Shown here piece by piece: positions 13,524-18,208 of a stretch of 64,000 bases of DNA; position 1 is the stretch's first letter, and each line of letters starts with the position of its first letter. This stretch comes from an uncultured archaeon. GTDB taxonomy: Archaea > Iainarchaeota > Iainarchaeia > Iainarchaeales > GCA-2688035. Both the position numbers and the translations under genes were made by a program. The stretch is taken from contig CAYHBD010000030.1 in assembly GCA_964354805.1 (NCBI GenBank), forward strand, positions 18,337 through 82,336, written 5' to 3'. The notes under the pieces are model-generated. The model saw only the letters and a list, made by a program, of their open reading frames with translations, was not told the DNA's origin and made no database searches.

Positions 13524-13757
13524 TCACTTTTTCTTTCCCTTTGCCTCTTTTTTAATTGCCTCATTCATTTCCTTGAGCAAAGAATCAATTTCCTTTTCAT
13601 CCATGCCATGCGCTTTTGCGCCCTGCTCGACTGTTTCAAAAACGGCAACATGGCAGCCAACGCAATGCAACCCCCTGCCAAGCATTACAGGCACGGCATC
13701 AGGAAACACGCTGACCACTTCGCCAAGAGTCGTATTTCTCTCAATTTTTTTAACCAT
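13524..13757 (-). CDS. DUF1858 (hybrid-cluster-associated redox disulfide) protein
   Basis: GLHCVGC, ETVEQGAKAHG. Confidence 0.85.
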   Translation of the reverse strand: MVKKIERNTTLGEVVSVFPDAVPVMLGRGLHCVGCHVAVFETVEQGAKAHGMDEKEIDSLLKEMNEAIKKEAKGKKK

Positions 13758-13765
13758 AAGGAAAT

Positions 13766-13864
13766 CAATCACAGAAAAGTTTTTTAAATGCCCCCTGACA
13801 GCAACGTGCTCAAAGCAATCACAGAAAAGTTTTTTAAATGCCCCTAACGGCAACGTGCCCAAAG
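13766..13864. repeat. Tandem ~50-bp duplication of the nrdG 3' end
   Basis: CAATCACAGAAAAGTTTTTTAAATGCCCC... at 13766 and 13816. Confidence 0.85.
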
Positions 13865-14544
13865 AAAGGCTTTAACGCAGCGGCAAACTGCAGCAGTTCC
13901 TCCCTGCTGTATGCCCTGCTGCCCTGCATTTTTTTATCCAAAAGCGGAACGCTTGAATCAAACTGCTGCAAAAAGAATTGCTCGGCGCCCTGCAGCCATT
14001 CGCCGATTGCAACCAAATCGGCTTTGCTGTGCAATGCAGGCACAATGGTTATCCTGAACTCGTATTCAACGCCGCTTTCTTTAATCAAGTCAATGCTGCG
14101 CTGGATTTTTTGCAAATCAACCCTGGCGCCGGCTGCTTTGCTGTATTTTTCTTTCGCAGCCTTTATGTCCATTGCAATGTAGTCCACTGCTTTGGCGGCA
14201 ATCAGCTTTTGCAGCATTTCCGGTTTTGAACCATTTGTGTCAATTTTAACCAGCAAGCCCAAGCGCTTGGCCTTTTTGCAGAAAGCAGGCAGCCCTGCAT
14301 GCAGCAGCGGCTCTCCGCCTGAAATGCATACGCCATCCAGAAACTTTCTTCTGTCGCGAAGGAAACGCAGCGCTTCTTTTTCCGTTATTTTTACGCCTGT
14401 TTCCTTGTCCAGAACAAGCTGGGCGTTGTAGCAAAAGGGGCACCTGAAATTGCATTTTGGCAGAAAAAGCGTTGCAGCAACCTTGCCCGGAAAATCAATC
14501 AAAGTTGTCTTTTGCACTCCTTTAAAGATAAGCAAACCATACAC
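13834..14544 (-). CDS. nrdG: Anaerobic RNR activating radical SAM enzyme
   Basis: TTLIDFPG, CNFRCPFCYN, SGGEP, DTNGS, AMDIK. Confidence 0.94.
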   Translation of the reverse strand: MYGLLIFKGVQKTTLIDFPGKVAATLFLPKCNFRCPFCYNAQLVLDKETGVKITEKEALRFLRDRRKFLDGVCISGGEPLLHAGLPAFCKKAKRLGLLVKIDTNGSKPEMLQKLIAAKAVDYIAMDIKAAKEKYSKAAGARVDLQKIQRSIDLIKESGVEYEFRITIVPALHSKADLVAIGEWLQGAEQFFLQQFDSSVPLLDKKMQGSRAYSREELLQFAAALKPFFGHVAVRGI

Positions 14545-14584: not shown

Positions 14585-14728
14585 TTATACTTTGCCCATT
14601 GCTTTTTTCTCTGAGAATGTCTGCCTTTCCTTGAATTCTTCCTGTTTGCCCAGATTCCAGTTCTGGACTGGCCTCAGGTATCCTACAACCCTGCTGTAGA
14701 CCTCGCATGGCGCGTTGCATTTTGGCAT
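14585..14728 (-). CDS. Stand-alone 47-aa NrdD glycyl-radical C-terminal module
   Basis: Manually translated: MPKCNAPCEVYSRVVGYLRPVQNWNLGKQEEFKERQTFSEKKAMGKV; GGAGGT RBS. Confidence 0.92.
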   Translation of the reverse strand: MPKCNAPCEVYSRVVGYLRPVQNWNLGKQEEFKERQTFSEKKAMGKV

Positions 14729-14780
14729 TTTCATCGACCTCCGTTTTTTAATTTTAATTTTTTGCCAATCTCAAATAAAA

Positions 14781-16796
14781 TCACTGCATTTGCCGCACTG
14801 TTTGCTTTGCTGCCTCTTCTTTTTTTTCGCTCACTTCAACAGGGCAGTTGAAGTGCTTGCCCTTGACATAGCCGTGAACAGGGCAAACACTGAAGGTTGG
14901 CGTAATAGTGTAATACGGCATCTTGAAGCCGTAAGCTATTTTTTTAACCAGCCTGCCGCATGCCTCTCCCGATTCCATTGCCTCTCCAAGGAAACCGTGC
15001 AATACTGTTCCGCCAGTGTATTTGCACTGCAGTTCATCCTGGTGCTTTAATGAATCAAAAATGTCGTCAGTGAAGTCAACAGGCAGCTGTGTGCTGTTTG
15101 TATAATATGGTGCATCCTTGCCTGCTGTTTTTATTTCCGGGTAGTTTCTTTTGTCTATTCTCGCAAGCCTGTAGGAGGCGCCCTCTCCGGGAGTTGCCTC
15201 CAAGTTGAATATGTGGCCTGTCTCTTTCTGGAATTCAGTCAGCCTTTCCCTGAAGAAGTCAAGTGATTTTAATGCAAGCTGCCTTCCTTCCTTGCCTGCA
15301 ATGCTTGTTTTCAGGAAATTTTCGCAGCATTCATTCATTCCAATCAGACCTATTGTTGAAAAATGGTAATCCAATGTGCCCAAATAATGCTTGCTCCATG
15401 GCAGCAAGCCCTGCTGCATGTTTTTGTTCACTTCCTTTCTTTTGATCTCAAGGCTTTCCTTCGCAAGATAAAGCAGTGTATCCAGCCTCTCGAAGAAATC
15501 ATCCTCGTCTTTTGCAAGAAAACCAAGCTTTGACATATTGATTGTCACAACTCCAATGCTGCCTGTTTTTTCACCAGAACCAAACAGGCCGCCTGTTTTT
15601 TGCTTCAGGTCGCGCAAATCCAATTGAAGCCTGCAGCACATTGAGCGAACATCGCTTGGCTTGAGCGAGCTGTTGATGAAGTTCTGGAAGTATGGAATGC
15701 CGTACTTTGCAGTCATGTTGAAGAGAGCCTGCGCGTTCTCGCTTTCCCAATCAAATTCTTTCGTAATATTGTATGTCGGAATTGGAAAGGTGAAAACCCT
15801 GCCGTTTGCGTCCCCTTCGGTCATTACCTCAATGAATGCCTTGTTAATCATATCCATTTCATCCTGGAAATCAGCATATGTTTCATCGGCAAGCATTTGA
15901 CCGCCGTAAATCACTGGCATGTCCCTCATGTCAGATGGAACAGTCCAATCTAGGGTAATGTTTGTGAATGGCACTTGGTTTCCCCAGCGTGATGTTGCGT
16001 TTGTTGCAAAAATGAATTCCTGCAATGACTGCTTTACCTTCTTGTAATCCAGATTGTCTTTTGCAACCAATGGCGCCAGGTAAGTGTCAAAGCTGTTGAA
16101 TGCCTGGGCTCCAGCCCACTCGTTCTGCAAGGTTCCCATGAAGTTGACAATCTGGCCAAGTGCTGCATTGAAGTGCTTTGCAGGCTTTGCAGCAATCCTG
16201 CCTGGCACTCCACCGAAGCCGATTTCAAGCAGCTGCTGCAGGCTCCAGCCTGCGCAGTATCCTGAGAATGTGCCGTTTCCCAAATCATGGATGTGGAAGT
16301 CGGCGCTCCTGTGCGCGTTTGATATCTCTTCCGGATAAATGTTTCTCAGAGCATACTCTGCAATGACTGCACCGCTTATGTGTGCCTGCAATCCTGAAAG
16401 GCTGTAGGAGGCGTTGCTGTTTTCCGCAACCCTCCAGTCAGTCAGCATTACGTAATCGTCAACGATTTTATTGATTTTGTTCAGGAAAGCGGCTGCATCC
16501 CTCAGCTCTGCTCTTTTCTGCCTGTAAATGATGTATGCCTTTGCTGTTTTTGCGTGCCCTGCCTCAATCAGTTCCTTTTCAACAGTGTCCTGAATCTCTT
16601 CAACGCCCGGAGTCTTTGTCCCGAATTTTTTCTTCAGGGCGTGCACTATTCTGTCGGTCAGGTCAACTGCAATCTGCCTGTTTGTTCCGCCGACGGATTT
16701 TGCGGCAGCAAAAATAGCGTCCTCAATCTTCTTTCTGTCAAAGGGGGCAGTGCTGCCGTCCCTTTTTCTCACGCTTTCCAAAAAACGCTGAACCAT
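14781..16796 (-). CDS. nrdD: Class III anaerobic ribonucleotide reductase (ATP cone; lacks Gly-radical loop)
   Basis: VRKRDG ATP cone, HIHDL, YCAGW, RSMCCRL, EATPGEG, YTGGTVLH; ends before RxxGY. Confidence 0.95.
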   Translation of the reverse strand: MVQRFLESVRKRDGSTAPFDRKKIEDAIFAAAKSVGGTNRQIAVDLTDRIVHALKKKFGTKTPGVEEIQDTVEKELIEAGHAKTAKAYIIYRQKRAELRDAAAFLNKINKIVDDYVMLTDWRVAENSNASYSLSGLQAHISGAVIAEYALRNIYPEEISNAHRSADFHIHDLGNGTFSGYCAGWSLQQLLEIGFGGVPGRIAAKPAKHFNAALGQIVNFMGTLQNEWAGAQAFNSFDTYLAPLVAKDNLDYKKVKQSLQEFIFATNATSRWGNQVPFTNITLDWTVPSDMRDMPVIYGGQMLADETYADFQDEMDMINKAFIEVMTEGDANGRVFTFPIPTYNITKEFDWESENAQALFNMTAKYGIPYFQNFINSSLKPSDVRSMCCRLQLDLRDLKQKTGGLFGSGEKTGSIGVVTINMSKLGFLAKDEDDFFERLDTLLYLAKESLEIKRKEVNKNMQQGLLPWSKHYLGTLDYHFSTIGLIGMNECCENFLKTSIAGKEGRQLALKSLDFFRERLTEFQKETGHIFNLEATPGEGASYRLARIDKRNYPEIKTAGKDAPYYTNSTQLPVDFTDDIFDSLKHQDELQCKYTGGTVLHGFLGEAMESGEACGRLVKKIAYGFKMPYYTITPTFSVCPVHGYVKGKHFNCPVEVSEKKEEAAKQTVRQMQ

Positions 16797-16968: not shown

Positions 16969-17490
16969 TTAAAATTCATCTTCAACAATAATTTCGCTTT
17001 CTTTTCTCCTGCCTGTAACGAATGGCTGCTCTGCTGCATAGCCGATTGGCAGAATCGCGACAGGCAGCATATCCTTTCCGGCATTTATCGCATCTGAAAC
17101 AGTAGCAGCATCAAATGCACCGACCCAAACACTGCTTAGGCCGAGTTCCTGCGCTGCAAGCTGCGCGTAAGCGCAAGCGATTGTTGCATCCTGCAATGCA
17201 TACAATTCTCTTCCTCTATTGCTGTACCTGCCTGCGCTTCTTTTCAAATCAGCTACAAACACAAGCAATAAGGGAACTTGCCCTACAAAGCCCTGACCCA
17301 AAGAAGCAGCAGCCAACTGCTGCCTTTTTGCTTCGCTTTTCACAACAACAATTTTGAATGCCTGCAGGTTGCCTGCGCTTGGCGCACTATTTGCAGCGCG
17401 CAGTATCTGCTGCAGCTTGTTGGTCTCAACCTTTTTTTCCTGAAAGCGCCGCACGCTGTGCCTTGCCTCAATCAATTCAAAAAATTGCAT
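16969..17490 (-). CDS. Nitroreductase family protein
   Basis: RHSVRRF, APSAGNLQ, GLSSVWVGAF, IGY. Confidence 0.92.
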   Translation of the reverse strand: MQFFELIEARHSVRRFQEKKVETNKLQQILRAANSAPSAGNLQAFKIVVVKSEAKRQQLAAASLGQGFVGQVPLLLVFVADLKRSAGRYSNRGRELYALQDATIACAYAQLAAQELGLSSVWVGAFDAATVSDAINAGKDMLPVAILPIGYAAEQPFVTGRRKESEIIVEDEF

Positions 17491-17519
17491 AAGAATTTGT
17501 TCATTCAAAGCGCTTTTAA

Positions 17520-17792
17520 TTATTGTTTTTTGAAAAACAGCCTGCACAGGCAGTGGCCCTGCTCCCTTATTTCGCTCTTGTGGAATGCGCAGGGGCAAAT
17601 CTTTGTATCGTCCTCAGCTTTTTTTCCGGTCAGCGCCCTGCAGGGGCAGTATTTTGCGCCCTTTGAATTGAGATTCTTTGCCAAAGCGCTTATTACTAAA
17701 TTCACTATTTTTTCATCCGGATTTAAAACAAGGCCTTCCCTCTCAGCGTAAGCAGTGCTTTCAGCCAGAATCTTTTTTTCTATTGAATCCAA
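17520..17792 (-). CDS. Ferredoxin:thioredoxin reductase catalytic-subunit family
   Basis: LNPD, YCPCR, ICPC, GHCLCRLF; start chosen from GGTGA RBS + TTG. Confidence 0.9.
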   Translation of the reverse strand: MDSIEKKILAESTAYAEREGLVLNPDEKIVNLVISALAKNLNSKGAKYCPCRALTGKKAEDDTKICPCAFHKSEIREQGHCLCRLFFKKQ

Positions 17793-17809
17793 AAAAATCA
17801 CCCATTTCT

Positions 17810-18043
17810 TCAAATGCCGAGCGCTCTCAGCAGCGCTGCCTCGTCAAAGCCAATGATTATTTTTCCGCCAATGTCAATGACAGGGACAGCAGTCTGCCCT
17901 GTCTTGCTGATCATTTCCCTCAGCTTTTGCGGATTGCTGGCTACATCAAAATCCTGGAAATTGACATTGTGTTCGCTCAGGAATTCTTTCACCATGTCGC
18001 AAAAAGGGCAGGTTGGCGTAGAATAAACAATTACTGGCTGCAT
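17810..18043 (-). CDS. Glutaredoxin/NrdH-like redoxin
   Basis: YSTPTCPFC, TGQTAVPVI, GFD. Confidence 0.92.
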   Translation of the reverse strand: MQPVIVYSTPTCPFCDMVKEFLSEHNVNFQDFDVASNPQKLREMISKTGQTAVPVIDIGGKIIIGFDEAALLRALGI

Positions 18044-18208
18044 ATAAGATAATTTAAAAAGAAAAAATATTTTTAAGGCAACAGGGTTCAAAGCGTGTTG
18101 AATACCTCAGTCTTTTAGAGGCATAATTTAGGCAAATTATTTATTTTTTCAACACGCTTTCAAAAAAAGAAAAACCTTTTAAAGAAACCCCTGCCAAAAA
18201 TACTTAAT

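Follow-up and report, generated by a model that had tools for sequence, protein, structure and literature searches.

Class III ribonucleotide reductase (RNR) is usually treated as a single catalytic chain, NrdD, that works with an activase, NrdG, as in the enzymes of phage T4 (1H79), T. maritima (4COI, 4U3E) and P. copri (8P23). Here we describe an nrdD gene that is divided in two, found in a 64,000-nucleotide stretch of DNA (hereafter 'the window') from an uncultured archaeon of the Iainarchaeota (GenBank assembly GCA_964354805.1, contig CAYHBD010000030.1, positions 18,337 to 82,336). Its products belong to the same family and fold as one-chain NrdD, and the locus has in common with those systems an ATP-cone, a barrel, finger-loop cysteines, a C-x2-H...C...C zinc site, an RVVGY loop and an adjacent nrdG, whereas the radical glycine, the fourth zinc ligand and the C-terminal tail are here encoded on a separate 47-amino-acid protein that has its own ribosome-binding site. 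A search of the literature turned up no account of an NrdD with its radical loop on a protein of its own.

Known systems with detached or divided parts

Free-standing proteins that consist of a glycyl-radical segment have been described for a different enzyme. GrcA (YfiD) of E. coli and Y06I of phage T4 are autonomous glycyl-radical cofactors that act as spare parts for pyruvate formate-lyase (PFL) (PMC8683613), and according to a review of June 2026 no enzymes other than formate lyases are known to have such spare parts (PMC13450708). The small protein of the window resembles them in being free-standing, in containing only the glycyl-radical segment and in having to act in trans with a large body. 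However, GrcA is homologous to the C terminus of PFL, whereas the small open reading frame (ORF) of the window matches only NRDD in a Pfam scan. In addition, GrcA coexists with a complete PFL and so is a spare, whereas the large chain of the window is without a radical loop and the small chain is a regular subunit. An earlier reading of this DNA from its letters alone (the sequence-only reading) had likened the small protein to a GrcA-type spare part, a comparison that fails for this genome, where the small chain is the only copy and an obligatory subunit.

Catalytic subunits of RNRs that are divided between genes are also known, for example the class II NrdJa/NrdJb of P. aeruginosa and of a Thermus phage and the genes-in-pieces NrdA of phage Aeh1, and phage nrdD genes can be interrupted by introns or homing endonucleases (PMC9669993, PMC3653736). 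As in NrdJa/NrdJb and Aeh1 NrdA, the catalytic subunit discussed here is encoded by two consecutive ORFs and would be reassembled without splicing. In those enzymes, which belong to other RNR classes, the large C-terminal piece has a zinc-finger or redox module and no radical cofactor; here, in contrast, the detached piece has 47 amino acids and holds the radical site itself.

Organization of the split nrdD locus

All window features of the split nrdD locus lie on the minus strand:

14781 to 16796, minus strand: nrdD large subunit, 671 amino acids (ORF call, Pfam NRDD and ATP-cone)
14874 to 14885, minus strand: first zinc knuckle, CPVH (Cys codon 14883-14885, His codon 14874-14876)
14841 to 14846, minus strand: third zinc ligand, Cys-Pro (TGC CCT), the first half of CPxC and the last conserved residues of the large subunit
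14784 to 14840, minus strand: poorly conserved large-subunit tail of 19 codons (VEVSEKKEEAAKQTVRQMQ), followed by the TGA stop at 14781-14783
14735 to 14780, minus strand: intergenic gap of 46 nt with two further in-frame TAA codons and GGAGGT at 14737-14742
14585 to 14734, minus strand: nrdD small subunit, 49 amino acids from the ATG at 14734 or 47 from the ATG at 14728
13834 to 14544, minus strand: nrdG, radical-SAM activase (Radical_SAM and Fer4_12 in Pfam; TIGR02495 NrdG2, 203 bits, cut-off 131)

The large subunit contains the ATP-cone, the catalytic alpha/beta barrel with its MCCRL finger loop and the first three zinc ligands. It matches positions 1-526 of the 562 in the Pfam NRDD profile (PF13597; 8e-170, 566.6 bits against a cut-off of 26.2), as well as the ATP-cone profile (1e-24), and the small ORF, which carries EVYSRVVGY, supplies the exact complement (positions 525-562 of 562, 9.9e-12). 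The NCBIfam model NF006126 is divided in a similar way, with positions 3-655 of 684 covered by the large ORF (1024 bits, cut-off 548) and positions 644-683 by the small one. The large chain ends ...CPVHGYVKGKHFNCPVEVSEKKEEAAKQTVRQMQ-TGA (that is, ...TPTFSVCPVHGYVKGKHFNCPVEVSEKKEEAAKQTVRQMQ-TGA), 19 residues past ...NCP and without an RVxGY motif, and the corresponding tails of its relatives vary in sequence and in length, from 4 to 40 amino acids.

The small ORF begins in a different frame, at ATG codons 46 and 52 nt past the large-ORF stop (14734 and 14728). Its translation starts M(KM)PKCNAPCEVYSRVVGYLRPVQNWNLGKQEEF..., reads in full M(KM)PKCNAPCEVYSRVVGYLRPVQNWNLGKQEEFKERQTFSEKKAMGKV and ends at 14585; the Cys codon of the fourth zinc ligand is at 14717-14719, the codon of the radical Gly of RVVGY is at 14681-14683, and the C-terminal tail is present. 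A Shine-Dalgarno (SD) sequence, GGAGGT, at 14742-14737 precedes the second ATG by 8 nt. Because relatives show the same spacing, the true start is probably the second ATG, which gives the 47-residue form. The nrdG gene adjoins the small ORF, 40 nt downstream.

These results bear on the central claims of the sequence-only reading, which had described an NrdD without RxxGY and, on a separate 47-residue ORF, the glycyl-radical loop. The sequence and the complementary Pfam matches confirm this in every detail. The GGAGGT ribosome-binding site and the distance of 52 nt that it gave are likewise correct, with the 47 residues fitting the ATG at 14728, and the in-frame TAA that it placed in the gap is there twice, past the TGA of the large ORF.

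The break divides a zinc site

The sequence-only reading had also stated that an intact NrdD has CxxH...CPxC followed by EVYSRxxGY, and had placed the break inside the zinc site. Both points agree with what was found. The canonical arrangement in 66 one-chain homologues from public genomes is ...CPxHGYxxGEHxxCPxCxxx[C/T]EVYSRVVGY. In an alignment of 44 one-chain or read-through NrdD sequences (A2), columns C637, C650 and C673 are invariant and H640 and P651 nearly so; by this alignment C637, H640, C650 and C673 are predicted to be the C-x2-H ... C-x2-C ligands of the structural zinc site ahead of the radical loop. The glycyl radical domain (GRD) of the P. copri enzyme has a structural Zn site, a buried Gly loop and a tail, and is highly dynamic (PMC11226230). 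A search of PDB sequences aligned the C-terminal region too poorly to place the zinc ligands on T4 numbering.

At the locus the break falls within the second zinc knuckle (CP|KC), in that the last conserved residues of the large ORF are C-P and the small ORF starts M-P-K-C. All four ligand positions are therefore present and divided, with C, H and C on the large ORF and the remaining C, the invariant fourth-ligand Cys of A2, on the small one, from which it would be supplied in trans. This Cys stands at -5 from the motif in 62 of 120 listed small proteins, and in 52 of the 58 whose leaders have at most 8 residues. Another 57 of the 120 listed are of the '...VPCEVYSR' type, a form named in records of Anaerolineae and Thermoflexia.

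When the two window ORFs were added to A2, they jointly retained 91 of 91 invariant columns, the sole apparent mismatch being the fourth-ligand Cys, which is on the small ORF. The finger-loop columns C385 and C386 (MCCRL) are retained in the large ORF, and the small ORF keeps all 11 invariant residues of its segment plus the Cys; a comparison among small proteins gave 15 invariant residues among 29. Because both ORFs together keep every invariant residue, the split nrdD has not decayed.

A probable two-subunit class III RNR

The locus very probably encodes a working two-subunit class III RNR. Its gene anatomy, with separate start signals, is conserved across the phylum, both parts are under purifying selection, and the break has been gained and lost repeatedly, as detailed below; from homology and a structural model we infer assembly in trans, bridging by zinc, and activity. 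Judged by these sequence matches, membership in class III (the NrdD family) holds for the two-chain enzyme and for neither chain alone.

In the proposed mechanism, the 671-residue chain would supply the ATP-cone, the barrel with its thiyl-radical cysteine loop and three of the four zinc ligands (C-x2-H ... C), and the 47-residue chain, made from its own SD sequence and ATG, would supply the fourth-ligand Cys, the EVYSRVVGY loop and the C-terminal tail. The small chain would dock into the barrel in trans, held by the shared zinc site and by its own tail. NrdG would then take a hydrogen from the small-chain glycine. From there the radical would move, as it does in one-chain NrdD, to the large chain's finger-loop cysteine. 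The break may be tolerated because the glycyl-radical domain would be a mobile module attached to the barrel, and because the breakpoint would be a surface knuckle that accepts long loops.

An AlphaFold2 (AF2) model was made for a relative from the same order (locus L113), read through its in-frame TAA. This model, which matches solved NrdD structures, has a mean predicted local distance difference test score (pLDDT) of 87.8 and a predicted template modelling score (pTM) of 0.83; pLDDT is 83-93 in the small-chain segment and 72-84 in the linker, with lower confidence at the large-chain tail region. As a proxy for the window's proteins, it is consistent with docking of the small chain as an ordinary radical domain.

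No class I or II RNR, second NrdD or second small ORF was found in this genome, a metagenome-assembled genome (MAG) that is 88.5% complete, so the two-piece enzyme is the only RNR seen. Several points weigh against the two-subunit enzyme as described. Assembly in trans and zinc bridging lean on homology and on the AF2 model of a relative joined across its stop; another RNR could be present in the unassembled part of the MAG; and 71 of the 151 sampled genomes of the phylum are without an RNR match, so the enzyme is not necessarily essential.

With its radical cofactor on a peptide of 47 residues, such an enzyme would provide a compact substrate for work on how NrdG installs a glycyl radical, for example by electron paramagnetic resonance (EPR) and peptide chemistry, and the split offers a natural test of how the radical domain leaves and re-enters the barrel.

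Distribution of split nrdD genes

A survey of split nrdD in DPANN, which the sequence-only reading had called for, was carried out on 151 sampled Iainarchaeota genomes, 74 of which have an NrdD match that exceeds the family cut-off. Of these 74, about 60 are split: by hand count there are ~50 out-of-frame splits and ~10 splits at an in-frame stop (confirmed at the junction in 4 of 10), plus ~12 one-chain genes. NrdD is present in 24 of 31 relatives, nearly all of them split at Pfam profile position 525/526. At 27 of 27 junctions read, the small ORF has its own ATG, 1-5 codons ahead of the Cys or of the motif, and nearly all of these ATGs are preceded by a GGAGGTGA-like SD sequence (GGAGG/GGTGA); in most relatives read, GGAGGT(GA) is 6-9 nt upstream of the start codon. 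Frequently the 3' end of the large ORF runs into the small one, so that 1-59 nt are shared, and the relative frame varies. The separate SD and ATG, the small overlaps and the variable frames indicate two translationally coupled genes.

Two breakpoints occur. The first, inside CPxC, is found in families f1 (that of the window), f2, f4, f9, f17, f23 and f27; the second, ~6 residues later and leaving a complete CPxC, is found in f3, f11, f12 and f31, where 'CPICEKE*' is followed by 'MVKTKCEVYSR'.

The large chain of the closest named record, from Candidatus Iainarchaeum, is 75.6% identical. The protein database holds at least 512 small proteins (26-86 amino acids) of the small-subunit kind, and many metagenomic proteins share 70-96% identity with the window's small ORF, whereas the adjoining large-chain tail is unconserved. 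Named genomes with the split, in which the large gene lies directly upstream, include members of Nanoarchaeia, Victivallales, Anaerolineae and Hippea. No model in NCBIfam or PHROGs covers the small protein. Annotation pipelines miss the small ORF or label it 'hypothetical', so that such genomes appear to carry a truncated nrdD.

Many large nrdD genes of the phylum (those of genomes G004, G011, G013, G063, G074, G121 and others) are open frames of 987-1677 amino acids in which the Pfam match is interrupted at profile positions ~50, 109, 155 and 260. This pattern fits the presence of one to three inteins.

Decay, artefact and removal of the intervening segment

A divided gene in a single MAG might be a pseudogene or an assembly or sequencing artefact in an organism that relies on salvage or on another RNR, and the 88.5% completeness of this assembly, together with the many DPANN genomes without any RNR, would accommodate such an explanation. 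It is nevertheless exceedingly improbable, as the same break with an SD and ATG recurs in dozens of independent assemblies from at least 13 families, every invariant residue is kept, and the small ORF is conserved (70-96% identity) next to a tail that is not. The sequence-only reading had stated that an assembly error, or fused close relatives together with decay at this locus, would count against it; the relatives are split too and no decay is seen.

Scarcely more probable is the proposal that the 118-nt segment separating CP from KC is excised or passed over during expression, as a bulge-helix-bulge intron, by translational bypassing (take-off at CCT, landing at CCA) or by frameshifting. It draws on the fact that deletion of 14723-14840 (118 nt) yields a perfect in-frame CPKC, with Pro codons on both flanks. 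However, this segment folds no better than shuffled sequence (z = 0.46), contains no bulge-helix-bulge and does not recur elsewhere in this genome. Among relatives, the two ORFs may overlap by as much as 59 nt or be up to 58 nt apart, with varying frames, and because the residue preceding the Cys is often not Pro (MSKC, MAKC, MKKC), there is no match between take-off and landing sites for bypassing. The conserved SD and ATG also argue against it, as does the occurrence of the same layout in bacteria, which are without the archaeal splicing endonuclease. Insertion of a mobile element was considered separately and ruled out, the 118-nt segment having no other copy in the genome. The two-subunit enzyme remains the preferred reading of the locus. 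In the split NrdD we see a known enzyme in a new form, which is real and conserved and whose mechanism is inferred.

Repeated splitting and re-fusion

Trees of the large-chain core were built with FastTree (100 rows) and IQ-TREE (54 rows), and both agree on what follows. The clade of the window (support 99) comprises 20-21 sequences, of which 14-15 are split, 1 is canonical and 5 are fused, with a loop of 6-10 residues where the others are broken. On these trees the split and fused states must have interchanged at least 10-11 times. The splits located after CPxC fall in another NrdD clade; therefore the break arose more than once.

Fused forms with a loop are nested among split ones. For example, the fused L108 is sister to the split L121 (support 99), and their junctions (...agc gga ggt gga aaa gtg ccc aaa tgc in L108 and ...ggaggtggaaaaaaATGcctgaatgc in L121) differ by 2 nt. 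The fused gene retains the SD sequence, which is translated as Gly-Gly, and has GTG in place of the start ATG. Many large-chain tails likewise end in 'EVK', which is GGAGGTGA read in frame. Parsimony on these trees favours re-fusion of a split ancestor. Split and fused architectures are evidently both viable, and recurrent re-fusion suggests a nearly neutral break. The repeated splitting and re-fusion of this gene, with an SD sequence read as Gly-Gly, cleanly illustrates how genes can come apart and be joined again.

A replaceable radical subunit?

The split may be selectively useful, as a cheap way of swapping a part cleaved by oxygen, or merely neutral. Like PFL, NrdD is cut by oxygen at its radical glycine (PMC12288474). 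A detachable small chain could therefore be an adaptation in which the cleaved 47-residue piece is exchanged and the new one activated by NrdG, sparing the 671-residue body. This RNR counterpart of GrcA-mediated PFL repair, which would add to the two-subunit enzyme and would not replace it, is a tentative and rather unlikely proposal. Besides the oxygen cleavage itself, it draws on independent splits in several lineages and on stray copies of the small chain: at least five f17 genomes have a second, unlinked small-chain gene in an oxidative-stress operon, orphan copies occur in G008, a genome of the window's own family, and orphan small ORFs make up 44 of the 80 best viral-contig loci. Against it, the small chain of the window is single-copy and obligatory, that is, a regular subunit and no spare; the repeated reversion to fused forms points to a split that is close to neutral; a zinc-anchored subunit may exchange poorly; and a rubrerythrin of that operon type was not found in this genome with the query used. 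The split enzyme is thus far a candidate, if a concrete one, for the repair of oxygen damage among RNRs.

The unlinked f17 genes encode 48-50 amino acids and were found at five loci: L123 (1968-2117, minus), L124 (1998-2147, plus), L127 (2025-2171, minus), L128 (2039-2188, minus) and L130 (569-721, minus). Each overlaps a rubrerythrin gene by 4 nt and lies downstream of a gene for a Fur-family regulator; a peroxiredoxin gene comes next in L123 and L130 and a gene for a CDGSH protein in L124, and MsrB is encoded nearby in L127. Judged by this gene context, they look like a spare radical piece regulated by oxidative stress. In one f17 genome with an orphan small-chain copy, G051, NrdD is fused, so that a small copy does coexist with a complete NrdD there, whereas it does not in the genome of the window. 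Of the G008 orphans, the second (L126, G008:C36, ~2050-2190 on the reverse strand) has an in-frame TAA after MICT and is either a pseudogene or a strain variant.

Outside the phylum, a Paceibacterota operon (L035, 1527-4750, plus strand) contains a complete nrdD (709 amino acids), a 94-amino-acid ORF and nrdG. The 94-residue product combines a zinc ribbon with two CxxC pairs and an ETEVYSRVVGY Gly loop, and is a candidate for a true spare radical domain beside an intact enzyme. Among IMG/VR loci (L133-L212), the 44 orphan small glycyl-radical ORFs noted above, out of the 80 best matches, have no NrdD body within 3.5 kb. In a Lentisphaeria genome a copy (L042, 3366-3671, plus strand) lies among genes that by eye, from the ORF translations, resemble those for ParB, AAA and RusA proteins of prophages. 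A search of GenBank phages with one orphan peptide gave no match, which, the query being short, is a weak negative.

The 47-residue protein could be a member of a large family, so far unnamed, of autonomous NrdD-type glycyl-radical proteins whose radical piece is exchangeable in trans, a speculative suggestion that we consider more doubtful than probable. Such a family would span obligatory subunits of split enzymes, paralogues in stress operons (Fur-rubrerythrin-GRD-peroxiredoxin) and phage-borne orphans. If the suggestion is correct, anaerobes and viruses would gain a route for repair or takeover of DNA-precursor synthesis after exposure to oxygen, and the exchange of a radical piece in trans, so far documented only for PFL, would extend to class III RNR.

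Neighbouring genes

Two genes upstream of nrdD in the window encode putative redox proteins:

17520 to 17813, minus strand: FTR/FtrB-like gene (NF041072, 6e-21)
17810 to 18091, minus strand: glutaredoxin/NrdH-like gene (TIGR02196, 1.7e-23), overlapping the FTR-like gene by 4 nt

This pair is a candidate ferredoxin-dependent disulfide relay that would form the reductant chain of this NrdD; such a relay was reportedly found for the class III RNR of M. barkeri by Wei et al. in 2015. A nitroreductase-family ORF at 16969-17598 (minus strand), called from a TTG, overlaps the FTR-like gene by 79 nt, and its true start is probably an internal Met near 17490. At 13524-13862 (minus strand), overlapping the end of nrdG, is a gene with a DUF1858 ('hybrid-cluster-protein-associated redox disulfide') domain, and the same domain occurs in a gene ~1 kb from an orphan small-chain copy of G008 (L125).

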